From Eledone cirrhosa (taxonomy: Eukaryota), in assembly GCA_964016885.1 (NCBI GenBank), contig OZ024743.1:262198001-262262000 (forward strand): DNA of 64,000 nucleotides. Reading direction: 5' to 3'. Under the pieces are notes generated by a model that ran no database searches, was not told where the DNA came from, and was given only the letters and a program-made list of their open reading frames with translations. Below are positions 2,071 to 63,059 of this stretch, piece by piece. The position numbers and the translations under genes were made by a program. The stretch's first letter is position 1, and each line of letters starts with the position of its first letter.

Positions 2071-5000
2071 TTATCTCTTTCTCTTAATTTCGAGTATATT
2101 TTTTTTGACCGGCCACCTTCATGGTGGCAAGGTTGTAAAAGAAAAGAAATTGTCATCCCTTGAATTGCAAGAATGTTTTGCAAATTTTGAAGGTGCTAGC
2201 TATTGCAGCCATTTGTAGACTATGAATTAGGGAGCTGCGCTTTTTGTCCGCAAATCCAAGTTCAGTCATACTTTGGTCCAAGCGGGTTGGTATATAACCC
2301 GTAGCTCCAATAATGATGGGTATGAAGCTAAAGGTGTATCTTGGATACTGGATTTGTAAACTCCTCATCAATGGTCCGTAGATGTCCTCCTTCTGTATTT
2401 TTCTGACAACGTTTACCTCAAGTGGGCAGCTGATCTCCACAACAGAACACGTTTTCAATGTGTGGTCCCAAACAACAATATCAGGCCGGTCGTGCTTTAA
2501 TTTGGTGGCAGTTTTTATTTTCAGGTTCCACCAGTATTCCTTAGTGTCATCTGTCTCAATATATTCTTCCTCGTTTGTTGTTAATTTTGTTTTCCGAAGT
2601 GCGTTCCAGATGGTTCTAGCTATCCCATCGTGTCTCATGGGGAGGTAGTAGAGAGATGACATTCTTTCGCAGCTGGCAACAATGTGGCTTACATCCTCGA
2701 TCTTTGTTTTACATAGCCTACATTTATTGTCAGCTGCTGGCCCTCCTCTTTTGTGCAGCAGATATTTGGTAGGGAGTTCTTGTTCCTGTATTGCATAGAG
2801 ATATCCCTCAAGGTGTGATGTCATAAACTTGGAACTCCATGCCAGGCTTTTTGAGTGGTTTATCCCCTCTATGGTCTGTGTTTTACACCTCAAGTATCCA
2901 TGCACAACTCTTTCTGTAAATTGGTCAATTTTTTTATCTTGTTTGAACATTGAATAGGATCTTCCGATTTCTCTGGGTGAGAGATTTATCATCATCATCA
3001 TCATCACCGTTTTACGTCCGTTATTCCACGCTAGCATGGGTTAGACGGGTTGTCCTGTTGTGGGCAGTGTCTGGTCGGCTGACCATGCCTTGCTCATACA
3101 GGAACTAATTTGGCTTGATTTCTACAGCTGGATGCCCTTCCTAACACCAACCTCATTTACAGTGAGTGCTGGGTGCTTTATCGTGGCGCCTACACGTCCA
3201 CTTTACAGTGTGGGCTGGGTGCTTTTTTGCCGTGGCACCTCCACGACCACCTTGCGGTGGGGGGTGTGGGGGCATGTTGTCTATATGCTTCAGCTTGTAC
3301 TCATGGGAGGTCGGGTACTCTGTATTACTGCGTGACGCCAGAGGTCACGGTCGAGTGTCATTGCCTTTGAGAGGTGTAATTGGGTAAGGTCAGCTTTTAT
3401 CACCTCATCCCAGATCATCTTGGGTCTCCCCCACTCCGCGGTTTCCATCGACTTCTAGTACTCTGCACCTTTTTATGCAGCTGTCATCCTTCATACGCAT
3501 CACATGTCCATACCAATGCAACCACCTCTCCTGCACACAGCATTTGATTCCTCTTAGGCTCAGTCTCTCTCTCAATTCATTTATGCTTTGTCGTTCACGT
3601 ATATTACTGTTACACATCCATCGGAGCATGCAGGCTTCGTTTCTCTCTAATCTACGTAAGTCTTCCACCTTCAGCGCCCAGGTCTCACTACCATGCAACA
3701 TCGCTGTTCGGATACACGCATCATACAGTCTGCCTTTCATTCTGAGGGAGAAGCCTTTTGCAGCTAGCAGTGGTAGTAGTTCCCTAAACTTCTTCCATCC
3801 CGTTCTTTCCCTAGTTATTGTACTTTCTGAACACCCACCTCCGCTGCTAATTCGGTCACTTAGGTAGCAGAAGCTGTCTACTGTTTCTACAGAGCCCTTT
3901 ATATCAGGCTTTATTCTATATCTCTCCTCCAGATCAGTCTCTAATCTAATTATATATTTTTTTTCATGCTCATAAACCTGGGCAAGATGGTTGCCAACCT
4001 TTTTCCTCTGTTGAAGGTGTTGCTTCAGTGTTACTATCCGGGTCTCATATGTTGTTAATATTGATTTTAGACCCCGGCCACCTTCCTTGCGTGAGAAGTA
4101 TAGCCTATCCACATCACCATTGATGTTAAAGTTCCCAGTAACACTGAGAAGTTTTCGAGTTCTAACATCCATCTCACTTAGTTCTTGCAATGACCAGTTC
4201 AGCAGGCCAAATGTTGGCGTTAGAATTGGCACAGCATAAGTATTGTGGGCAATGTATTTGTTGTACGCTGACAGTTCTGGTGACCATATTTTCTTTACTT
4301 TTCTGAGGTATTCAGTTCTGGTTCTCTCCTTATTTATGGGTCCATCATATCTGACATTCTCATCCTGTCCAAGATATCTGTAGTTGTCACCTGACTGTAG
4401 AGGTTGTATTGTCAGGCCGTTCATCTCTAAATTTCTAGAGGAGAGCACAGCTCTTCCACGTTTTACTGCCAAATATGTACACTTGGACTCACCATATTTC
4501 ATTTTGATGTCGGTTGAAAATTGTGTAATGAGGTCCAATTGTTTCTTGATGTCATTGATATTTGGCCCATACAACTTCAGGTCATCAACAAAGAAAAGAT
4601 GGGAGATACTTCTGAGCCCACTTCTTTGTCCACCTTGTTTCCTGAGTAGGTAAGATAGTGGATTCAGTGAGAGAATGAAGAGTAGCACTGACAAGCTATC
4701 ACCCTGAAAGATGCCCTTCTGGTAATGTATCTTATCAGTCTTAACTTGCTCCTTCTCACCTCTAAGGATCAAATTGGTGTACCAGTTCTTGGTCAGACGT
4801 TCAACAGCAGCTACCAATGGTTGTGGGACTTTGGCTAACTGTAAAGCCTTAATAATCCACCCATGAGGTACACTATCAAATGCTTTTTGATAGTTCAGCC
4901 ACACCACAGTCATGTTTCTGCGATTCTTTGTTGTTTTTTCCTGAATCATTTTGTTAGTTAGTAGGTGATCTATGCAACCCCACACCTCCCTCTTTCCACC

Positions 5001-5220
5001 AGCTTGCTCAGGTGTTATGATGTTGTTGGTAGCACAGTGATCCTGTAAGAACAGGTTAAGGCACCCAGTATATCATTTATACATGATGTTCTGGCAGGCT
5101 ATTGGGCGGTAATTTTTAGCAAGGGTGGTTTGGCTATTTTTCGGAATAAGGAGAGTAGTGGGAGTTGATAACCATCTGGGCAGTTCTTGTGTTCCTTTAA
5201 TGGTTTCAGTAAACAGCCGT
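2071..5220 (-). mobile_element. R4/Dong-like non-LTR retrotransposon (RT + CCHC + restriction-like endonuclease), 5'-truncated, interrupted by an RTE at 2990-3897
   Basis: RT motifs NYRPIACQN, YQKAFDSVPH, GIFQGDSLS, HLFFVDDLKLY (3903-5220). C-terminal CRLC..HIVASC, RHD, RPDIVV..VVEISCP, PIIIGATG (2153-2989). One in-frame stop (YK*YT) near 5075. Confidence 0.8.
2990..3897 (-). mobile_element. RTE-clade LINE subfamily A, 5'-truncated, inserted in the R4-like element
   Basis: RT C-terminus (DSFCYL, HGSETW, WYGHVMR), 3' UTR and (GAT)n tail. 5-bp TSD TTTAT at 2985-2989 and 3898-3902. Confidence 0.9.
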
Positions 5221-5497
5221 ATGTATATATGTATGTATGTATGTATAACAACAGTAAATGGCCTTTAATGCGACGAAATGCCTAACACGGTTGGAAGGCC
5301 ACTGATGAGGACAAACTTTTTCATATGTAACCCATTTGCAGCGCCGCAGCTCCATTATTATCATATATATATATATATATGTATGTATATGTATGTATGT
5401 ATGTATGTATGTATATGTATGTATGTATGTATGTATATGTATGTATGTATATATATGTATGTATTTGTATGTATATATGTATGTATATGTATGTATG

Positions 5498-5756: not shown

Positions 5757-6311
5757 ATGGTTGGGTCGTTGGCGACTAAACTGGCAACCCCACCAAGGTT
5801 TCTTGGTGAGGAGGGTGACTTTGGACATCCTGCAGGACTAAAAACAAAACCTGTCAAAGGGCAAAGGAGCTCTTAAGAGTCAATGGCCATCCAAATTCAC
5901 CGGGAGAGATGACCCCTTAGCCTTTGTCAAGGCAGAATTCTAGGAGAAGGAAAACTCTGATATAACACCTGCAACCCTGATGGTATCCAATGATGTTGAC
6001 TTGTTCTTCTTTTTGGTAAATATCATCTTGGTTAAGAGAGTGGGACTGGCTTTGTGCAGTGCTTTTGCTCACTATAAAAGCTTCACGGCACAGGCATTGC
6101 TTTATATCTGGAGAGCTCTCTGCACTTGTCGTCATATGGTACCATGGGCCCAGCACTGTGTGTCAATAATTGTCACAAGTGTAGTGTTTGTAGCAGAGTT
6201 TTCAAGTTGCTGGCTGGACTAAAAGTCACACTCGTTCAGCGCATTGGTAGGAGTTCTCCTACATGGATATAAAGTAGTGGCCGTACTCGAAAACGAGTTA
6301 GCAGCCACCAT
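5757..6311 (+). mobile_element. Bipartite RTE-derived non-autonomous retroelement, copy 3
   Basis: Same family with a longer 5' end (GGGTCGTTGGCGACTAAACTGG). Flanked by microsatellite. Confidence 0.75.
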
Positions 6312-8137: not shown

Positions 8138-8212
8138 GTCGCCAACGACCCGACCATGAGACAGGTTGTACTGGGATACATGTTACCAGTAGCACCAGCT
8201 GGTGACGTATAT
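8138..8212 (-). mobile_element. Inverted fragment of the extreme 5' end of the bipartite element
   Basis: Reverse complement matches ~12575-12644 (CCAG.TGGTGCTACTGGTAACATGTATCCCAGTACAACCTGTCT.ATGGTCGGGTCGTTGGCGAC). Confidence 0.8.
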
Positions 8213-8326: not shown

Positions 8327-8449
8327 AAGTTTCCGTTGAAAATTGAAAAAGTCATAGGAGTGAAGAGTGCTCTATGTAAGTACCAGAGCTAAATTTAATG
8401 TATAATAAACAATACAATACTACTACCTCACCGCCAGAGGCCTCCCGAA

Positions 8450-8968
8450 CAAGGTTTCTTGGTGAGGAGGGTGATTTTGGACATCCTGCAGGACTAAAAA
8501 CAAAACCTGTCAAAGGGCAAAGGAGCTCTTAAGAGTCAATGGCCATCCAAAATCACCGGGAGAGATGACCCCTTAGCCTTTGTCAAGGCAGAATTCTAGG
8601 AGAAGGAAAACTCTGATATAACACCTGCAACCCTGATGGTATCCAATGATGTTGACTTGTTCTTCTTTTTGGTAAATATCATCTTGGTTAAGAGAGAGGG
8701 ACTGGCTTTGTGCAGCGCCTTTGCTCACTATAAAAGCTTCACGGCACAGGCATTGCTTTATATCTGGAGATCTCTCTGCACTTGTCGTCATATGGTACCA
8801 TGGGCCCAGCACTGTGTGTCAATAATTGTCACAAGTGTAGTGTTTGTACCAGAGTTTTCAAGTCGCTGGCTGGACTAAGAAGTCACACTCGTTCAGCGCT
8901 TCGGTAGGGGTTCTCCTACATGGATATAAAGTAGTGGCCGTACTCGAAAACGAGTTGGCAGCCACCAT
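8450..8968 (+). mobile_element. Bipartite RTE-derived non-autonomous retroelement, copy 4
   Basis: Same family. The zinc-finger remnant reads [25 protein letters not shown]. Confidence 0.75.
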
Positions 8969-9594: not shown

Positions 9595-11099
9595 ATCATC
9601 ATCAACGTTTAACGTACGTGTTCCATGCTTGCATGGGTTTGGATGGGGGTTTTCCCACTTGAGGCAAGAGTGATTGTCTTGCTTGCATAGGACTGTCTGG
9701 CGGATTTTCTACGGCTGGATGCCCTTCCTAACACCAACCACATTTACAGTGTGGGGCTGGGAGGATTTTACAGTGTTGCCTACATGGCCACATTACAGCG
9801 TGGACTATCTGGCGGTTTTCTACAGCTGGATGCCCTTCCTAACACCAACCACATTTACAGTGTGGGCCTGGGAGGTTTTTACCGTGTTGCCTACACGGCC
9901 ACATTACAGCGTGGATTGTGTGTTTTTTTGTCGTGATACCTACACGATCTCATTTGTTTCCGCCTGGCTGTTGTGGCACCAACATAACTTTACATAGAAG
10001 GGGGGCGGTGTGGATGGGGTGGGGGTGGTGGGACGGGGGTGTATTTTGTTAGAGATGCCTACTGACTGTAGTAGGTTTTACTTTGTATTTAGGTAAGGCG
10101 GGTCTTCTCTATTACTGAGTACCGCCAAAGGTCTCGGTCCAGTGACATTGTCTTGGAGAGGTGTAAGCGTGTGAGGTCGGAATTTATCAGCTCGTCCCAT
10201 GTTTTTCTGGGTCTGCCTACTCCGTGGCTACCGTCTATCTTTATTGCCCTGCACTTTGTTATACAGCTGTCGTCTTTCATGCGCATCACGTGACTATACC
10301 AACGTAGCCTTCTCTCAAGTAAACAACATGTGATCCCTCTTATTTCTAATTTTTTTGTTAGTTCGTTTATGCTTAGCCGTTCACGTATATTACTATTACA
10401 CATCCAGCGGAGCATGCAAGCTTCGTTCCTCTCTAGTTTGCGTATATCCTCTGCACACAATGCCCAGGTCTCACTGCCATGCAGCATTGCTGTTCGTATG
10501 CAGGCATCATATAACCTGCCTTTCATTTTTAGGGAGAACCCTTTAGCGGCTAATAGTGGTATAAGCTCTCTGAACTTTTTCCATCCAGTTCTGACTCTAG
10601 CTACTGTACTTTCAGAGCACCCTCCCCCACTGCTGATTTTGTCACCCAGGTAACGGAAGCTGTCCACTATTTCTATAGAACCCTCTGCGCAATTGAAAGA
10701 GCTAGTATTTTATTGGGCACTTGCTGCTACTTATTGCACCAGAGCACCGGCCACATGTAAGATCTATGTTCTTAGTTAGCTTACCTGTGATCCCACTACA
10801 TCTTTTATGCACCCATACTTTGCATTTGGGACATAAAATGGAGTTTCTACCTATGCCTTTCCTACACTCTGAACATGGCCATTTCCCGGAAGGGACCGCC
10901 GCCCTATTTTCTTTCCTACGAACTAGAACTTTAGTCTTAGCCAGGTTAATTTTAAGGCCTTTTGATTCTAGGCCGTGCTTCCACGTTTGGAATTTCTTCT
11001 CTAGTTCGGTCATTGATTCAGCTATGAGCGTTAGATCATCTGCGTATAGGAGTTCCCATGGGCAGCCGGTCTTGAACTCCTCTGTTATAGCCTGAAGGG
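9595..11099 (-). mobile_element. RTE-clade LINE subfamily B, 5'-truncated, frameshifted
   Basis: ELLYADD, Cys-rich insert, DSFRYLG, HGSETW. The 3' UTR has an internal ~110-bp duplication and a (GAT)n tail. Confidence 0.9.
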
Positions 11100-12023
11100 T
11101 GTGTATGTATGTATATATATATATATATGTGTATGTATGTATATATATATATATATGTGTATGTATGTATATATATATATATATATATGTGTATGTATGT
11201 ATATATATATATATATGTGTATGTATGTATATATATATATATATGTGTATGTATGTATATATATATATATATATGTGTATGTATGTATATATATATATAT
11301 ATGTGTATGTATGTATATATATATATATATATGTGTATGTATGTATATATATATATATATATGTGTATGTATGTATATATATATATATATGTGTATGTAT
11401 GTATATATATATATATATGTGTATGTATGTATATATATATATATATGTGTATGTATGTATATATATATATATATGTGTATGTATGTATATATATATATAT
11501 GTGTATGTATATATATATATATATGTGTATGTATATATATATATATATGTGTGTATGTATGTATATATATATATATGTGTATGTATGTATATATATATAT
11601 ATGTGTATGTATGTATATATATATATGTGTATGTATGTATATATATATATATGTGTATGTATGTGTATATATATATATATGTGTATGTATGTATATATAT
11701 ATATATGTGTATGTATGTGTATATATATATATATGTGTATGTATGTGTATATATATATATATATGTGTATGTATGTATATATATATATATGTGTATGTAT
11801 ATATATATATGTGTATGTATGTATATATATATGTGTATGTATGTATGTATATATATATGTGTATGTATGTATGTATATATATATATGTGTATGTATGTAT
11901 ATATATATATGTGTATGTATGTATATATATATATATATGTGTATGTATGTATATATATATATATGTGTATGTATGTATATATATATATATATGTATGTAT
12001 GTATATATATATATATATGTATG

Positions 12024-12054
<31 letters not shown>

Positions 12055-12565
12055 ATATATATATATGTGTATGTATGTATATATATATATATGTGTGTAT
12101 GTATGTATATATATATATATGTGTATGTATGTATATATATATGTGTATGTATGTATATATATATGTGTATGTATGTATATATATATGTGTATGTATGTAT
12201 ATATATATATATGTGTATGTATGTATATATATATGTGTATGTATGTATATATATATGTGTATGTATGTATGTATATATATATATATGTGTATGTATGTAT
12301 ATATATGTGTGTATGTATGTATATATATGTGTGTATGTATGTATATATATATGTGTATGTATGTATATATATATGTGTATGTATGTATATATATATGTGT
12401 ATGTATGTATATATATATGTGTATGTATGTATATATATATGTGTATGTATGTATATATATATGTGTATGTATGTGTATATATATGTGTATATATGTGTAT
12501 GTATATATATATGTGTATATATGTGTATGTATATATATATGTGCATGTATGTATGTATGTATATA

Positions 12566-13181
12566 TGGGATACATGTTACCAGTTGGTGCTACTGGTAAC
12601 ATGTATCCCAGTACAACCTGTCTAATGGTCGGGTCGTTGGCGACTAAACTGGCAACCCCACCAAGGCTTCTTGGTGAGGAGGGTGACTTTGGACATCCTG
12701 CAGGACTAAAAACCAAAACCTGTCAAAGGGCAAAGGCGCTCTTAAGAGTCAATGGCCATCCAAAATCACCGGGAGAGATGACCCCTTAGCCTTTGTCAAG
12801 GCAGAATTCTAGGAGAAGGAAAACTCTGATATAACACCTGCAACTCTGATGGTATCCAATGATGTTGACTTGTTCTTCTTTTTGGTAAATATCATCTTGG
12901 TTAAGAGAGTGGGACTGGCTTTGTGCAGCGCCTTTGCTCACTATAAAAGCTTCATGGCACAGGCATTGCTTTATATCTGGAGATCTCTCTGCACTTGTCG
13001 TTACATGGTACCATGGGCCCAGCACTATGCGTCAATAATTGTCACAAGTGTAGTGTTTGTACCAGAGTTTTCAAGTCGCTGGCTGGACTAAAAAGTCACA
13101 CTCGTTCAGCGCATCGGTAGGGATTCTCCTACATGGATATAAAATAGTGGCCATACTCGAAAACAAGTTGGCAGCCACCAT
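12566..13181 (+). mobile_element. Bipartite RTE-derived non-autonomous retroelement, copy 5 (longest, begins with a 19-bp hairpin)
   Basis: Same family. 3' part encodes [25 protein letters not shown]. 12566-12610 is a perfect 19-bp stem with a 7-nt loop. Confidence 0.78.
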
Positions 13182-13222
13182 ATATGTGTAGGTATGTATG
13201 TATGTATATATATATATATATA

Positions 13223-13253
<31 letters not shown>

Positions 13254-13466
13254 GTGTATGTATGTATATATATATATGTGTATATATATATATATAAATG
13301 TGTATGTATGTATGTATATATATATATGTGTATATATATATAAATGTGTATGTATGTATGTATATATATATATGTGTATATATATATATATGTGTATGTA
13401 TGCATGTATATATATATGTATGTATGTATATATACATGTATGTATGTATGTATATATATATATATG

Positions 13467-13503
<37 letters not shown>

Positions 13504-13613
13504 ATATATGTATGTATATATATATGTGTATATATATATACATACATATATATATATACATACATACATGTGTATATATATATACATACATATATGTGTA
13601 TATATATATACAT

Positions 13614-14178
13614 ACAGAAAGTAAAGCGGGATGTGAGGAAGGGCATTGCTGTTGCACTTCCAGACGGCGAGGGTCCTCCTATGGTGCTGACATGCAGCGT
13701 ATGTGCGAGACTCTGCCTAAGCAAAGCTGAACTCGAAAGTCATCTTCGCAGTCATAAAGTAAGACCAGTAGTTGACTACCAGGCTGCTGTTGGAGATGCT
13801 ACTCATCATGCTTGCCAAACATGTGGTAGAGAATGTAAATCAGCAGGAGGGCTCAAGCGACATGCAAAAGTACACGAACTCCAACCACAGCCGACTATTC
13901 CCAGTGAATGTTTTGGTTGCCGACTCTGTGCAAGACATTGTAGATCATTGGCTGGGCTAAAAAGCCACATTCGATCGCAGCACTGTTAGTTGTTATCGTG
14001 TGTGTGTGTGTAGATATGCTTATGTGCGTGCGTGTGTGTGTATATATATATGAATATGTATATTATTATTGTTGTTGTCGTTATTATTATTATTGCTATT
14101 ATTATTATTATTATTATTATTATTGTTATTAATGTATGTGTGTGTGTGTGTATGTATGTGTGTATGTATATATGTATG

Positions 14179-14217
<39 letters not shown>

Positions 14218-14357
14218 TTTTTTTTTATTTAATTATTTATTATTATTATTATTATTATTATTTTATTTTATTTTATTTATTTTTTTTATTTTTTTTATTT
14301 TTTTTTTTTTTATTCTCGTGCAATGGCCATACTCGATAACGAGGGGGCAGCCATCAT
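13614..14357 (+). mobile_element. 3' fragment of a LINE (probably RTE clade) with three C-terminal C2H2 zinc fingers; 3' UTR expanded by simple repeats
   Basis: [41 protein letters not shown], stop at 13989. Tail TGGCCATACTCGATAACGAGGGGGCAGCCATCAT (14324-14357) resembles that of the five-copy element. Confidence 0.7.
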
Positions 14358-14666
14358 ATATATATATATGTGTATATATATGTATATATATATGTGTATA
14401 TATATATATATGTATGTATATATATATATATATATATGTGTATATATATATATATGTGTATATATATATATATATGTGTATATATATATATATATATATG
14501 TGTATATATATATATATATATGTGTATATATATATATATATATATGTGTATATATATATATATATATATGTGTATATATATATATATATATATGTGTATA
14601 TATATATATATATGTGTATATATATATATATGTGTATATATATATATATATGTGTATATATATATA

Positions 14667-14716
<50 letters not shown>

Positions 14717-14730
14717 TGTATATGTATATG

Positions 14731-14763
<33 letters not shown>

Positions 14764-16090
14764 GTATGTTTATATATATATGTGTATATATATATGTATG
14801 TATGTATATATATATATATGTATGTATATATATATATATATGTGTATGTATGTATGTATGTATGTATGTATATATATATATATATATGTGTATATATGTA
14901 TGTATGTATATATATATATGTATGTATGTATATATATATATATATATATGTGTATGTATGTATGTATGTATGTATATATATATATATATGTGTGTATATA
15001 TGTATGTATGTATATATATATATATATATATGTATGTATATATATATATATATGTGTATATATGTATGTATGTATGTATGTATATGTATATATATGTATG
15101 TATGTATGTACGTATGTATATATATATATGTATGTATATATATATATGTATGTATGTACCTTTGTATATATGTATATATATATATATATGTATGTAAATA
15201 TGTATGTATATTCTGGTTTTATAATTTCACAAATTTTTACCAATAGAGAGTCAGTTTCTAACAAGACTCTTTCATTGGAATTTACACATCAACTAGGTAG
15301 ATTATGTATGCATGCATGTGTAGATATGGATGTTATTGTATGTGTGCATGTGTATGTTTTGAGTTGTATGTGTGCATGTGTATATGCTTTGTATTTGTAC
15401 ATGTGTATATGTAGTTATTAGATGCAACATTTTTAGTATGTTTTACATATTTTTACTGTTCCAACACTGCCATCACCACCACAAACGGCATATACATACA
15501 CTCTGACACAAACACATCAACTGTCTACTCCATCACCTTAATCACCACAACACCATCTGTACCATTCGCTACTACATGTAACTACACAATACATACCACA
15601 AACCACACATCCCTGCCAAACACAGACACACACACACATGCACAAGTGCCTAAACAAGGACACATATGATACACAATCCCAAACACGCACACAGTTTTAT
15701 TTATTTTCTTTACATTTCCCTTTCTTATTCTGTCTTTTTCTATGGCTGGATACCCATCCTAACACCAACCACTTTACAGCGTATACTGAGTGATTTTGTG
15801 TAGATCACTAGGTCGGTTGTCATGTCTTTGACACAACTGGAGGGTCCTTCAAACCTTTTGTTTGGCAAGTCTTCTATAGCTTGATGCCCTTCAACCTATT
15901 TACAGCATGTACACAGGCTGCATTTCTCTTGTAGATCACCAACAGTAGAGAGTGTCTTGTGTTAATACACAATAGAAGGGTTTTCTCAACCTTTTTAGGC
16001 ATGGTTTCTTAAGTGGTGTACCATTGTTGCCAACCACTCTTATGCTGTGTACCAGGTGCAGTTTCGTGGCACTGTTGCTGGGTATTAGTG

Positions 16091-27337: not shown

Positions 27338-28901
27338 TTTAGCGTAAAAGTTGGTGTCAATCAGGGCTCTGTTCTTAGCCCCCTACTATTTATTATTGCC
27401 CTTCAGGCTATAACAGAGGAGTTCAAGACCGGCTGCCCATGGGAACTCCTATACGCAGATGATCTAACGCTCATAGCTGAATCAATGACCGAACTAGAGA
27501 AGAAATTCCAAACATGGAAGCACGGCCTAGAATCAAAAGGCCTTAAAATTAACCTGGCTAAGACTAAAGTTCTAGTTTGTAGGAAAGAAAATAAGGCGGC
27601 GGTCCCTTCCGGGAAATGGCCATGCTCAGTGTGTAGGAAAGGCGTAGGTAGAAACTCCATTTTATGTCCCAAATGCAAAGTATGGGTGCATAAAAGATGT
27701 AGTGGGATCACAGGTAAGCTAACTAAGAACATAGATTTTACATGTGGCCGGTGCTCTTGTGCAATAAGTAGCAGCAAGTGCCCACAAAATACTAGCTCTT
27801 TCAATTGCGCAGAGGGTTCTATAGAAATAGTGGACAGCTTCCGTTACCTGGGTGACAAAATCAGCAGTGGGGAAGGGTGCTCTGAAAGTACAGTAGCTAG
27901 AGTCAGAACTGGATGGAAAAAGTTCAGAGAGCTTATACCACTATTAGCCGCTAAAGGGTTCTCCCTAAAAATGAAAGGCAGGTTATACGATGCCTGCATA
28001 CGAACAGCAATGCTGCATGGCAGTGAGACCTGGGCATTGTGTGCAGAGGATATACGCAGACTAGAGAGGAACGAAGCTTGCATGCTCCGCTGGATGTGTA
28101 ATAGTAATATACGTGAACGGCTAAGCATAAACGAACTAAGGAAAAAATTAGAAATAAGAGGGATCAGATGTTGTTTACTCGAGAGAAGGCTACGTTGGTA
28201 CGGACACGTGATGCGCATGAAAGTCGATAGCTGTATAACAAAGTGCAGAGCAATAAAGATAGACGGTAGCCACGGAATAGGCAGACCTAGAAAATCCTGG
28301 GACGAGCTGATAAACTCCGACCTCACACACTTACACCTCTCCAAGACAATGTCACTGGACTGAGACCTTTGGCGGTATTCAGTAATAGAGAAGACCCGCC
28401 TTACCTAAATACAAAGTAAAACCTACTATAGTCAGTAGGCATCCCTAACAAAATACACCCCGGTCCAACCACCTCCACCCCATTCACACCGCCCCTTCCA
28501 ATGTAAAGTTATGTTGGTGCCACAACATCCAGGCCGAAACAAATGAGATCGTGTAGGTGTCACGACAAAAAAAACACACAGTCCACGCTGTAATGTGGCC
28601 GTGTAGGCAACACGGTAAAGACCTCCCAGTCCCACACTGTAAATGTGGTTGGTGTTAGGAAGGGCATTCAGCTGTAGACAACCCGCCAGACAGTCCACGC
28701 TGTAATGTGGCCGTGTAGGCAACACGGTAAAAACCTCCCAGCCCCATACTGTAAATGTGGTTGGTGTTAGGAAGGGCATCCAGCTGTAGAAAACCCGCCA
28801 GACAGTCCTATGAGAGCAAGACAACCACTCTTGCCTCAAGTGGGAAAACCCCCGTCCAAACCCATGCAAGCGTGGAACACGGACGCTAAACCTTGATGAT
28901 G

Positions 28902-50000: not shown

Positions 50001-52674
50001 ATCTGGCTGTAGAACATTACACCCAAAAATTCTTGTCCAACACATGCCAACATGGAAAAATAAAAAAGTGATGATGAGGAGGTTGATAACATCTCTCCAT
50101 TTTCTTTGTGGGTTGTTAATGAACCACTTGTTTTTTTTTTTGTTTTCTTCCCTTTTTTCTCCAACTAAGAGGGACAGTTTTATTTATTAAGACATTTTTT
50201 GCCCACATAGGTAACAAATTGGCAGTCATTAGAGCAACAGATTGTCTCTATTTATTCTGGCTCTCTACTGAGTTCAAATTCAGCCATGGTCAAGTTTGCC
50301 TTCCATCTTTTTTGACTCAATGAATTGATGACCTGTCCAGGATTGGTAGATTGGAAGAATTGTTTAAGAGTTGTTCAGGAAGATTTGCAGTGAATGTTTC
50401 AGCTCTCTGCCTTCTGAATTCCAATTCAACCTCTTGTCACTGGAAAGGTGGTGACACATGTGCCAAGAGTTGGAACTGGCTGTTGGTATTAGCAATGGAA
50501 TGATCAATAGAAACAATTTCTTTGGTCTAAGCTAATGATTGGCTCCTTTCCTTTTCTTTACATACATTATTCAGTATTCGAAATATGAAGATTCTGATGG
50601 GTTTTATTTGAGATGCAACTGTTTGGGTTATGGTTCTTATTATTTAACCACAAGTAAACTTTACCTATACAGACCTGTAATCAAACACATTCCAGCTGTA
50701 TAACCATCCTATAATTTCTTCTGACATGTATATCTAGGAATCAGTATCCAATGTGTCCTTTCTATTTTTAAGATGACTAGACTTTCAGGGAGATTTGACT
50801 GCTATTTCTAGTAGATTGACTGACCACTGTGAGATTTTCTCATTGTTTCTCCAGAGATTGTATTACATTTGGTGACATTGATCTCTCGGTTCATCATCAT
50901 TTATTCCCCACCACCTTCACTTCTCAGTTGCCACCAAAACATACAATCAAGACAAGAGGAAGCTGCTATGCACTCACCTAGCCAGCTAAAAATAATAATA
51001 TTTTTTTCAAATAACCTTCTACCATCTTAAAAATGACACATTGGGTATTATAGTCTTAGATACACTGTATGTGGGAGGAAAATAAAAAAAATGCCTTTGA
51101 TAAGCATTCTGGATCAGGACTGACCTCTGGCTAAACAGCAGTAATTAAAACAGCTTGTGTGATTAGGTAGAGGCAGTGTGTTTCAACTGCTACAGAACAC
51201 TCTCTTATACAAAACAAACATTGAGCTGAAAAAAATTGCTATGTGGTTGCTCAGTCTGCTAGAAATAACAGCCAAATCTTCAAATCACATCATCCTCATC
51301 ATCATCGTTTTTAAGTCCATTTTTCCATGCTGGCACAGATTGGATAGTTATTTTGAGGTAGTGTTTTACAGAAGGATGCTCTTTCTGACACCAACCTTTT
51401 TAGTCAGCTCTGACAACATGCAGGGATACAGAGTACTTTTTCTAAGTAGTAGTGTACACACTAATGTCTCAGAAAAAAACCCCGACACATTGAATAATGT
51501 GGTCCTATGTTCACTTAAGATGATATGCTTACAGCTGGAACACCTTTGATAATAGGTCTGCTGGATCAAGGCTGACCTGATGATTAATAACAATAACAAC
51601 AGTCAAATTTTATCTGTGAGCTTTGTGAAGGAATATATTATCATGAAGATTGTTTGTCACAACAGAAAAAACAAAACAAAAAAAAAACAGTTTATTCAGG
51701 AGAATTATGTGTTCAAACTAACAGAAGCATTAGTATTCATTCTGACTCTTTGCATTCTGAATTCAAATGTAACCAAGGTTAAATTTGTCATCTTTCCATG
51801 GTCAATAAATAAAGCACCAGTCAAATGTAGGTGGTGGGTTATTGGAATTATTAGCTCTTCAGAGAAGTTACCTTTTGGTATTTTGTCCCAACTATTTGTA
51901 TTCTAAGTTCAAATCCTACTCTGGTCTACTTGGGTGGTAGACTTAATCTGTTGGTTGGTTTAACACCACCACCTGGCCCTTGTATGCCTTTAGCAGAGTT
52001 CACTCTGCTTCAAGTATTTGAACTAGGTCTCTGGTTTGAGGATGTTTTTCTTCCACCAATCTGAGGCCCCCAAAAGAGTCATGGGCATTGCTCTTTCTGA
52101 CTAACTTATAAAAAAGTGAATTGAATGTATTCAAATTGTAATTGATTAAAAAAAGAAGAATAGTAGTATTTTGGAATTGACTTAATAAAGTTCTGGAATT
52201 TGAAGAAATCCAATTTCCAGGATAATTGCAGGTATGACAGTTATTATTTGAATTCAGAGTGTTGAAGGCTTAACAGATTATCTCGCCTACTGGAATTCAT
52301 CTGCTGGTTGTTCTTAGGTTCCAAATAAGACTGTACTAACTACAGAGCCTCTTTTCTTGGCTTTTTATGACATGTAAGATTGTTTCTTTTGTTTTTTATT
52401 GCTTAGGAAGGAAAATCCATAACTTTTCAGGACTTCTGTGAATGATGGCTAAAAATTGGGTTTCCAAGGTTCAGATGGAGGTGTTACACTGGACAACAGA
52501 TTGTTTAGTCCTATTTATTCTTTTATTTAACTTCGATATTTTTAAGCTTTTGCATTTTTCTTTCTATGGTTACTTTTATTTATCTCTTTTTTTTATATTT
52601 TCTCTTTTTAGGCTTCTGGCTTGGAGCTTGAACCACTCTTCTGACCTCATTTGATTCTTTAGAATTTCATTAGC

Positions 52675-53941
52675 ATGTCTGAGGTGCCTCCACTTCCAAG
52701 ACGGAAGGATAGCTTGCCAGCACCAAAAGTGCCTCCAATACCACCTGTGCCGAATCGAAAAAATTACCAATCAAGTCGCCCTTGTGTATGGCCAGTTACC
52801 CAGCCAACTACTTCAGCTGTGACCGTTTCTAGTGGCTGCAGTAGTAGCAGCGTCAGCAGTAGTAATATCAGCAGTAGTAGCAGCACCAGTGTCAGCGTCA
52901 GTAGCAGTAGTAGCAACAATAACAATACAACAAGCAGTACTATCACCAGTAGTACTACCATTACCACCACCAGCATTACCATCTCTACACCTGCTACAAC
53001 TAGTTGTATTTCTTCAGCTTCTGCTGCCGTCAAAATGTCTACAACCCCACAAGTATCAATATCATCTTCATCGTCAGCATCAATCGATTCCAAAAGTTCC
53101 AATGAAGCTTCTGAAATCGTATTCGAGGCTTCAAATCACTGCCAGGAGGGCTTCAAAGCTCTTTTGGATTTCTATAATCGGAAGATTTTATGTGACTTGG
53201 AGATTCGAGTTGGCAAGAAGTCGATATGGTGTCATCGGGTTGTTCTTGCATGTGTCAGCAACTACTTTAAAGGAATGTTCACATCTGACATGGCAGAGAG
53301 TAAGCAGGGTATTTTGACCATACATGATCTGGATGAGCAATGTCTGCAAGCTCTCATAACATTTGCATACACCTCTAAAGTCACCCTCACTGTAGACAAT
53401 GTACAACAACTACTATATGCATCATCCATTTTGCAAATGGAAACAGTTGCACAAGCTTGCTGCAAATTTATGCAGAACCATTTACATCCGACAAACTGTG
53501 TCGGTGTCAGAAACTTTGCTGAACAGCATGGCTGTACAGAACTGGTCAAAGTGACAGATGAATACATACTGGAACATTTCCTTGAGGTAGTTGACCAAGA
53601 AGAGTTTTGTAATATGCCATACAAAGTCATTGACATCATTGTCAGTTCACCTAACCTTAATGTACCTTCTGAAATCCGTGTTTATGAGGGTGTAATGAAA
53701 TGGGTTAAACAAGACTTAATGAAGCGCCGTTGTTATCTACCAAAACTGCTTGCACATGTCAAGCTACCACTTATACCAGTGAGTTACCTTATGGACTGTG
53801 TTGAGACTGAGGATCTTTTAAAGAAAAGTTTTGAGTGTAGGGACTTTCTCGATGAAGCAAAACATTACCAGATGTCTCACACCAACCTGATTATTGAGGT
53901 TAAAATTACAGAGAGGATGAAACCTCGAAAAAGCTATGCAG
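52675..53941 (+). CDS. KLHL8: Kelch-like protein, KLHL8-like: first coding exon (Pro/Ser/Thr-rich N-terminus, BTB and BACK domains). Kelch-repeat exons not seen in the window
   Basis: Acceptor TTTCTCTTTTTAG ending 52611, ATG at 52675, donor GCAG|GTAATG after 53941. BTB: LCDLEIRVG..CHRVVLAC..YFKGMF..TLTVDNVQQLLYA. BACK: HPTNC..VRNFAE..EIRVYEGVMKW..VKLPL..CRDFLDEAKHY. Ends PRKSYA(G), matching my recollection of KLHL8 (PRKHTAG). Confidence 0.88.
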
Positions 53942-54140
53942 GTAATGTTTCTTATTTCTCTATTTTCTTTTCATCTCTCTCATTCTCCCTCCCTCTCTCG
54001 CTCCCACTCCCCTCTCTCCCCATCTCTCACACTCTTTATATTTAATATATATATACTATCATTATCATTTTATGTTTGCTTTTCACATTGGCATGACTTA
54101 GAGACCAGACAGGTTGGGCTGACCTCATCTTGCACACGTG

Positions 54141-60782: not shown

Positions 60783-62959
60783 CATCATCATCATCATCAT
60801 CACCGTTTTACGTCCGTTCTTCCACGCTAGCATGGGTTAGACGGGTTGTCCTGTTGTGGGCAGTGTCTGGTCGGCTGACCATGCCTTGCTCATACAGGAA
60901 CTGATCTGGCTTGATTTCTACAGCTGGATGCCCTTCCTAACACCAACCTCATTTACAGTGAGTGCTGGGTGCTTTTTCGTGGCGCCTACACGTCCACTTT
61001 ACAGTGTGGGCTGGGTGCTTTTTTGCCGTGGCACCTCCACGACCACCTTGCGGTGGGGGGGGGGGGGCATATTGTTTATATGCTTCAGCATGTACCCATG
61101 GGAGGTCGGGTACCCTGTATTACTGCGTGACGCCAGAAGTCACGGTCGTGTGTCATTGACTTTGAGAGGTGTAGTTGGGTAAGGTCGGCTTTTATCACCT
61201 CATCCCAAGTCATCTTGGGTCTCCCCACTCCGCGGTTTCCATCAACTTCTAGTGCTCTGCACCTTTTTATGCAGCTGTCATCCTTCATACGCATCACATG
61301 TCCATACCAGCGTAACCGCCTCTCCTGCACGCAGCATTTGATTCCTCTTATGCTCAGTCTCTCTCTCAATTCATTTATGCTTTGTCGTTCACGTATATTA
61401 CTGTTACACATCCATCGGAGCATGCAGGCTTCGTTTCTCTCTAATCTACGTAAGTCTTCCACCTTCAGCGCCCAGGTCTCACTACCATGCAACATCGCTG
61501 TTCGGATACACGCATCATACAGTCTGCCTTTCATTCTGAGGGAGAAGCCTTTTGCAGCTAGCAGTGGTAGTAGTTCCCTAAACTTCTTCCATCCCGTTCT
61601 TACCCTAGTTATTGTACTTTCTGAGCACCCACCTCCGTTGCTAATTCGGTCACCTAGGTAGCAGAAGCTGTCTACTGTTTCTACAGGGCCCTCCCAGAGA
61701 TTGGTGGTACTTGTTTCCTGTGGCTGTTTGCTTGCTGTTTCAGCACAGCTGCTGCATGTGAATCCTACATTCTTAATTAAGCTTCCTGAGATCCCGCTAC
61801 ATCTCTTGTGTACCCATTGTTTGCATTTGGGGCAAAGAATGGAGTTCCTACCTACACCTTTCCTACATACTGAGCAAGGCCATTTCCCTGAGGGGATCTG
61901 GGTTCTGTTTTCTCGTCTACTTATAAGGACCTTAGTCTTTGTCATGTTGACTTTGAGGCCCTTTCTCTCTAGTCCCTGCTTCCAGGTTTGGAATTTATTC
62001 TCTAGTTCTACCATAGATTCAGCTATGAGTGCGAGGTCATCAGCATACAGGAGTTCCCATGGGCATCCGGTCTTAAACTCCTCCGTTATTGCCTGCAGGA
62101 CTATGATGAACAGGAGAGGGCTAAGAACAGAGCCCTGGTGGACCCCAACCTGTACGCTAAATTCCTCGCTATACTCATTGCCAATCCTAACTTTGCTGAC
62201 TGCTCCCCTATACATGGCTTGTACCGCTTTCACAAGCCATTCATCTACTCCTAGTTTTCTAAGAGCCCACCAGATTACTGCACGTGGAACTCTGTCAAAG
62301 GCTTTCTCAAGGTCGACAAATGCCAAGTAGAGTGGCTTACTTTTAGCTAGGTACTTTTCCTGTAATTGCCTCACAAGGAAGAGCGCATCAGTGGTGCCTT
62401 TCCCTGGAACAAACCCAAATTGCATCTCGTCTATATTCACCCGGTCCCTAATCAGCTGTGCTATAACTCTTTCTGTTACTTTCATGACCTGGTCCATCAA
62501 CTTTATACCTCTATAGTTTCCTCTATCTAGTGCATCGCCTTTACCTTTGTAGCAGTTGACAATGATGCTACTGCACCAATCTTTTGGTATGGCCCCCTCT
62601 AGTATTACCTGGTTAACGATACGTGTGGTTATAGTGTGACCTACAGACCCAGATGCCTTCAGCATCTCGGCAGCTATACCCGATGGACCGGTTGCCTTCC
62701 CTATCTTCATATCTCTGATTGCCTTACTTACTACGCTGCCGCTGACTTGTACTGCTGGTCCCTCTATAGGGTCTACGTGGGGTAGGGTCTCTTCTTCCCA
62801 TGCATTCTCCTCATTTAGTAATCTATCATAATGACTCTTCCATGCATCTTTCTTCTCAGCACTTGTGAGGGCAAGCTCACCTTTATCATTCCGGATACAC
62901 TTCTCTCCAATGACATCACAACTATCTCTGACACACTGCCTCGCAATCTTGAATACCTC
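60783..62959 (-). mobile_element. RTE subfamily A, 5'-truncated, uninterrupted RT ORF (young copy)
   Basis: 541-aa ORF 61085-62710, open further to the junction. 9-bp TSD TACCTCATT at 60774-60782 and 62954-62962. Confidence 0.95.
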
Positions 62960-63059
62960 ATTATCTGAAGCTATTATTATTTATAGCGATTTCTTTGTTT
63001 GGATTCTAACATTTCAAATCATCCAAATGCCTCAATAAATCATTATATATATATATATA

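Follow-up and report, generated by a model that had tools for sequence, protein, structure and literature searches.

The 64,000-nucleotide stretch of the Eledone cirrhosa genome that was analysed here (the window) contains a long TA/TATG microsatellite tract (11100..15211), which is split by two insertions, a short element at 12566..13182 and a fragment of a LINE at 13616..14357, both on the + strand. The tract is the target of these insertions. Matches to other copies show that the fragment consists of the last ~124 codons of an ORF, a 3′ UTR and a tail, and that it is a 5′-truncated, non-autonomous copy of a LINE family that we call family A. A previous, sequence-only reading had placed the fragment at 13614..14357. 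The end is exact, and the start is at 13616, as relatives align from the third base of the query. The three C2H2 fingers (13693..13755, 13813..13875 and 13918..13983), identified by motif and by Pfam, lie where that reading had put them, share one open frame that stops at 13987-13989 and score above the cut-off for zf-C2H2_4. It had overlooked a Gly-to-Glu change in finger 1, where position 3 of the helix is Glu in the window copy and Gly in 41 of 41 three-finger relatives.

The 3′ UTR (13990..14323) is made of simple repeats (GT, ATT, TATG and a T-run), and those at 13990-14320 belong to the element, since they are present in other copies too. It is followed by the tail (14324..14357), a stem-loop and then (CAT)n, which by comparison of tails is a putative signal for recognition by the element's protein. 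As had been claimed, the tail resembles that of the short element, with 30 of 35 bases equal and the inner CTCG/CGAG stem kept. This inner stem has compensatory changes among eight aligned tails, although the structure was picked from the same eight tails, so that its controls flatter the covariation. In the window's short copy (tail at 13148) the stem is disrupted by a mutation, which had also been missed. The orientation is as first described, with the LINE fragment and all five short copies (12566..13182 and 271-767, 1652-2054, 5757-6311 and 8444-8968) on the + strand. Sequence comparison marks the short element, which we call C, as an internal-deletion derivative of a sibling LINE family, E; the 12566..13182 copy bears a short inverted segment at its 5′ end.

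Several other features of the window lie in or near such tracts. A Dong/R4-like element with restriction-like endonuclease motifs (2075-5363, - strand) is also placed in these TA/TATG tracts, in the opposite orientation, and insertions of family A and of C repeatedly have its ends or truncated copies next to them. A repeat of ~330 bp begins right after TATG tracts and beside insertions, sometimes in tandem (window 15211-15450 and loci L070, L205 and L278). Elsewhere in the window, a 460-aa open frame (52663-54042, + strand) resembles the BTB/BACK region found in host genes of the kelch type.

A search of the 3.0 Gb genome with the fragment gave 826 candidates, the best 40 of which are 99-100% identical to it. 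The 742-bp fragment is also 96.8-97.9% identical to 30 intact copies of family A. The window copy itself is a dead fragment, ~97% identical to the youngest intact group. It had been proposed that the fragment is the 3′ end of a LINE family related, yet not identical, to the short element, and this is borne out, as is the existence of autonomous copies with stop-free ORFs. Family A is confirmed as a young RTE-type LINE with three C-terminal C2H2 fingers. It is 5.4 kb long (~5.3-5.8 kb in copies with both ends visible), with a 5′ UTR of ~1.58 kb, a single ORF of 1181 aa that encodes an endonuclease, a reverse transcriptase (RT) and the three fingers, and a 3′ end with a (CAT)1-5 tail and the covarying stem. 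The domains upstream of the fingers are, by Pfam, Exo_endo_phos (an APE endonuclease) and RVT_1 (the RT), as found in other copies of the family. Upstream of the main ORF in the full-length copy L279 there is no + strand ORF of at least 80 aa, hence no ORF1. The RTE clade label rests on this architecture and on characteristic motifs, the RT trees holding only unnamed or uncharacterised relatives. Membership of the R1 or Tx1 clade is ruled out by the single ORF, as elements of these clades carry a second one, an ORF1 of gag-like or RRM type. A host C2H2 zinc-finger gene, a possible refutation named by the sequence-only reading, is likewise excluded by the high copy number (826 candidates), the fusion to an RT and the long linkers between fingers (median ~16-19 aa).

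Family A bears several genomic marks of recent activity, namely intact ORFs, low divergence, a fixed 5′ end in full-length copies, 5′-truncated copies and target-site duplications. Among the scored matches of two protein searches, 42/42 and 39/39 are stop-free (10 shared, 71 distinct by coordinates; L064 is one locus with an intact frame), and the same three fingers end each of the 30 stop-free ORFs that were fetched. The median pairwise difference among 27 of these 30 ORFs is 0.4%. The fixed 5′ end lies further out than two points first taken for it, a conserved inner block of the UTR and a position ~150 nt inside the true start. In L296, a marine relative with ~49% protein identity, nucleotides 338-441 are 71% identical to this inner block over 104 nt, and the block is probably a conserved, structured RNA element. 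The block conserved in L296 has no Rfam match, and a search for ribozymes or known RNAs in the 5′ parts of the elements found no Rfam match at gathering score.

That such elements are biased towards microsatellites had been suspected, and the bias is strong. The 5′ junction is the decisive place to look for it, because the tail cannot account for repeats at the 5′ end. This junction lies at TATG/TA repeats in 16/16 full-length family A copies and in 22 of the other 32 visible junctions (34 loci including the window copy, two without a visible junction), all drawn from best matches rather than a random sample. When 20 stretches of 10 kb spread evenly over the genome (200 kb) are scored by the same junction rule, 7.25% of positions satisfy it. 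By eye, several of the ten non-full-length junctions without a repeat are 5′ inversions or later insertions. Short element C is similar, with 68/83 of its 5′ junctions at a TATG/TA repeat overall and 29/36 in truncated copies. The orientation of the repeat is nearly constant, TATG outnumbering CATA by 33:1 for family A and by 53:2 for C. The phase is also constant. The terminal CAT is followed by eight bases of R-T alternation in 50 of 62 tails of family A and its derivative B and in 72 of 85 C tails, with the same four-base phase, and in family E RTAT comes directly after 24 of 26 tails.

As controls we used two very abundant RTE families that also occur in the window, have no C-terminal fingers and carry tails ending in AT, with loci collected by protein search. 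The R-T alternation follows 7/35 and 3/11 of their tails. Their visible 5′ junctions are at AT repeats in 4/12 and 9/17 cases (30 loci each), without strand bias. Part of the repeat bias is therefore general. A broad preference for AT is common to all these RTEs, the three-finger families are far more strict, and the behaviour of family A is microsatellite-specific, with most copies in one repeat type and with fixed strand and phase. Unrelated elements, such as the Dong-like R4 element and other RTEs, adjoin the same tracts. The two control families (window 61088-62980, -; 10092-11100, -; 27340-28360, +; and others) have tails of (GAT)n, and their RT region encloses a PHD-like cluster of cysteines. 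In one of them 150/150 scored matches are 100% identical over 101 aa, many with open frames of 1040 aa.

The repeats could lie at the site beforehand or be added by the element, and the sequence-only reading had suggested that tails containing repeats extend the target. This is not supported. The informative duplications start at the last AT of the element, tract length does not differ between the 5′ and the 3′ side, and the two flanks carry matching types of repeat. Target-site duplications of 10-13 bp with no added bases were found by script in L039, L045 and L034 and by eye in L058 and L064, the script giving a clean informative duplication for 3/83 short elements. Three further script matches among short elements, at offsets of 3-110 nt, are ambiguous, and likewise one family A match. 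Median tract lengths are 49 nt (5′) and 44 nt (3′; n=81, p=0.91), G content correlates between the flanks (rho 0.52; 78 of 126 elements have alternating flanks on both sides), and imperfect repeat units in targets are duplicated faithfully. The clean duplications, equal tract lengths and matching G content favour insertion into pre-existing tracts over tails that add repeats. Filled tracts exceed the background (summed median 95 versus 54 nt), which fits a preference for long tracts and growth of tracts alike. A search for empty sites among the fetched loci returned self-matches and tandem piles only.

That said, feedback on microsatellites runs by another route. The UTRs of the elements bring their own repeats and other copies insert there, e.g. 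the short elements inside the 3′ UTR in L069 and L074. In 15 of 203 cases the 5′ start of another family member lies within 150 nt downstream of a tail. A, B, C and E copies can be piled head to tail with 8-30 nt of TATG between them (L008, L028, L066, L180, L187 and L290), an arrangement that may be likened to telomeric retrotransposon arrays. Inverted 5′ ends or inverted downstream flank are frequent at 5′ junctions (L058, L065, window 8138-8212 and 12566-12578), a pattern that twin priming would produce, or a snap-back within (TA)n, which is self-complementary.

A further suggestion had been that the RT of the fragment's family mobilises the short element. As parent of that element, family A is rejected. 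The proposed comparison of its 5′ UTR with the short element gives a match of 71% over 228 nt only (163/228, nt 198-404). Together with the similar tail this was too little to retain family A as a candidate, whereas family E fits both ends. A protein search with the finger remnant plus local tblastn found no parent, and neither did a DNA search with the 3′ part of the short element; perfect matches to the finger remnant lie in open frames of at most 198 aa in 150/150 cases. It was a truncated three-finger end, L438, carrying the finger and tail of the short element exactly, that led to family E. This is a sibling three-finger family with 243 genome candidates and ~52-57% protein identity to family A over long spans. 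In 9 of 20 fetched E loci, nucleotides 8-434 of the short element are found at 90-97% identity ahead of the ORF, and most of the 20 have nucleotides 435-616 at 94-95% at their end. Because both of its ends match, short element C is family E minus its middle, and it retains a coding remnant of the third finger. No intact ORF was found in the 20 fetched E loci, the longest being 863 aa. On biased sampling, the short copies are slightly less diverged than the E copies (2.4%, n=69, versus 3.0%, n=8), so late copies of C may have been moved by family A.

Family A has a derivative of its own. Short element B combines the UTR block of A with the exact A tail, and L094 is a fresh two-part deletion derivative of A. 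Both B and C inherit the repeat specificity. The outer 1.15 kb of the A 5′ UTR (L279 624-2206 versus L066 and L474) is unrelated to the 200-nt head that E, C and B have in common, which suggests that family A swapped its promoter after B arose. Family D is an older sibling, ~60-67% identical to A in the RT region, and also ends in the repeat. In L399, L395, L401-L403, L406, L411, L413 and others, the 3′ end of D lies directly upstream of B with near-identical spacers, which suggests a co-amplified chimera.

Relatives are also found outside Eledone cirrhosa. With the C-terminal region as query, a protein search gave 98 proteins, and a quick RT-only tree of 99 rows, with a query biased toward the finger region, places 41 of 42 three-finger rows within a 53-row clade (SH-aLRT 95), apart from most single-finger rows. 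We also sampled metagenomes, taking the 17 closest loci that reach an element end, out of 70. Of the multi-finger contigs with a 3′ end, 10/11 run into (GTAT)n and the eleventh stops after 8 bases; these contigs are likely collapsed repeats, so the (GTAT)n could be tail. Five of the 17 contigs start with an ATGT run. A second tree unites the 15 ATGT-flanked rows, without exception, and L311, a degraded one-finger copy that has no ATGT flank, in a single clade (SH-aLRT 100), and five rows lacking the repeat fall outside. The repeat habit is thus lineage-wide, because marine metagenome relatives at ~50% identity end in the same repeat. As the ATGT-flanked clade has one origin, the link between fingers and target amounts to a single observation. 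No relative was found in viral contigs.

Taken together, the fragment is the end of a young three-finger RTE LINE. Copies of this family, and its distant relatives, occupy (ATGT)n/(AT)n repeats in a single orientation, and the likeliest reason is that the element's protein itself chooses tracts that already exist and nicks them. The junctions, read in the light of established LINE biology, suggest target-primed reverse transcription with a nick in (ATAY)n. A single family A protein would bind the tail stem-loop of its own RNA, and its endonuclease would nick the (ATAY)n strand. The terminal AU of the RNA could then pair with the nicked end over two bases, and reverse transcription would follow, leaving the 10-13 bp duplication. 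Selection may reside mainly in the endonuclease/RT core, with the fingers serving as a clamp. Each insertion splits the tract and introduces further repeats of its own, so that family members stack head to tail.

An unlikely alternative is that the RNA picks the site. Transcripts reading through into the flanking (GUAU)n of the donor would pair with nicked (ATAC)n DNA and add repeat at each insertion. There are precedents, at least in the available text of the papers concerned. The tail repeats of RTEs show a correlation with the base at which the duplication starts, and a role in priming has been proposed for them (PMC6007223, PMC13295347), and microsatellites in moths are created by RTE tails (PMC2887409). 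The pure (GTAT)n at the ends of the metagenome relatives and the unchanged endonuclease loop point in the same direction. However, the duplications are clean and without added bases, the 3′ tracts are no longer than the 5′ tracts and the 3′ repeat type tracks the 5′ type, although read-through priming at the first unit would evade all three of these tests.

Two other explanations place the cause outside any choice of site. Near-random or mildly AT-biased insertion could be followed by survival, or assembly, of copies mainly in microsatellite tracts, as the accessible part of one study puts forward for Drosophila Waldo-A/B (PMC3812793). This would suit the ~7% of positions that follow such repeats and the 33-53% seen for fingerless RTE families. 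It is already disfavoured, and we think it very improbable, as it leaves unexplained the strand bias (33:1 and 53:2), the fixed four-base phase, the presence of the bias in the youngest copies and the same repeat beside relatives at ~50% identity. Little credence can be given to the notion that both flanking repeats are made during insertion, by RT slippage or repair, at sites with little or no repeat. Unrelated elements (the Dong-like R4 element and other RTEs) adjoin the same tracts and imperfect units are faithfully duplicated, even if some targets match (RTAT)n over just 4-8 bases (L058, L045) and template switching is common, judging from 5′ junctions at which flank or element sequence is present as an inverted copy. 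Selection of existing tracts by the element's own protein is the reading that we carry forward.

Do the fingers read the repeat? This is plausible on mixed evidence, and we lean somewhat against it. In its favour, the extra fingers arise together with the repeat habit, and the endonuclease as a source of the new specificity is unsupported because elements with one finger and those with several have a similar hairpin loop. Nearly all of 41 three-finger proteins have Ser/Thr at helix position -1 and Gly at position 3. On the other side, the same small helix residues occur in the single finger of non-targeting relatives, and the linkers are long. In the text available, the C2-L1Tc fingers of L1Tc prefer RNA (PMC2805920) and known LINE specificity is credited to the endonuclease (PMC3812793, PMC13295347). 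A single-sequence fold of the finger region was too poor to be informative (pLDDT 45), and the relatives found in the PDB are L1, R2 and generic C2H2 structures only.

Waldo and Mino belong, with their kin, to the R1 and Tx1 clades and have two ORFs, unlike family A, which has one ORF with C-terminal C2H2 fingers. According to the available text, Waldo targets ACAY repeats, Mino (AC)n, Kibi (TC)n and Koshi (TTC)n (PMC3812793). Family A is like Waldo in being an APE-type LINE in one microsatellite, and ACAT is the reverse complement of the ATGT found here. It shares with Bov-B and plant RTEs the RTE architecture, a short repeat tail and a tail that overlaps the start of the duplication. The Tn-TA signature of those elements is, in the portions available, a weak motif, and Bov-B is rarely flanked by tail-like sequence (PMC6007223, PMC13295347), whereas 80-85% of the tails here enter a phased repeat. 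Bipartite non-autonomous RTEs are represented in the accessible text by Bov-A, WALLSI3 and RTESINE (PMC5786205). C and B similarly keep the RTE 5′ part and 3′ end after internal deletion, and differ in inheriting repeat specificity and, for C, in the third-finger remnant. Trypanosome L1Tc likewise has C-terminal C2H2 motifs beside basic stretches in a LINE protein; there the available account gives the fingers an RNA/single-strand preference and a chaperone role, a precedent against base reading (PMC2805920).

The nearest described element may be RTE-2_OV of Octopus vulgaris, reported with 1109 aa, UTRs of ~600 nt and a C2H2 finger; the available text states no target preference (PMC9115989). 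By description rather than by sequence, it differs from family A in length (1109 versus 1181 aa), in fingers (one versus three) and in its UTRs (~600 nt versus a 5′ UTR of ~1.58 kb), and compared in this way it may be an orthologue or a sibling. The excerpt of a 2026 paper gives site-specific members among APE-type LINEs for Tx1 and R1 only (PMC13295347), that of a 2026 review lists an RTE element used for gene writing as a random inserter (PMC13708176), and the available parts of PMC13282606, PMC12988792 and PMC10294476 add nothing on the targets of such elements. Microsatellite-specific APE LINEs and bipartite RTE derivatives are thus already known, as far as these texts extend (PMC3812793, PMC5786205). 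What is new in the literature searched, to which Repbase and subscription journals did not belong, is strict repeat specificity in a single-ORF RTE lineage with three fingers; no ATGT-, TATG- or ACAT-specific or three-finger RTE was found there.

We also offer a bolder and tentative hypothesis, which we think possible and somewhat doubtful as a whole. One gain of two extra C2H2 fingers would have made a broadly inserting RTE (ATGT)n-specific, the fingers reading the periodic repeat. R1 and Tx1 would then be joined by a third APE lineage with site specificity, and no earlier one would owe its target to C-terminal fingers instead of the endonuclease. It would have lasted across marine animals, and in this genome would have given rise to three families of LINEs and two of short elements, which pile up in microsatellites and reshape them.

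What makes the find interesting is the family and not the window's dead copy. Whether the target of a LINE is set by the endonuclease, by accessory fingers or by the RNA tail is a long-standing question. It becomes directly testable in an RTE lineage that has one ORF, is strict in its choice of repeat, retains dozens of intact copies and has close relatives with a single finger and no such specificity. Family A could also lead towards a compact inserter that is delivered as RNA only and directed to a repeat. For the genome of Eledone cirrhosa, the habit of family A helps to explain how long TA/TATG tracts turn into stacks of mobile elements.
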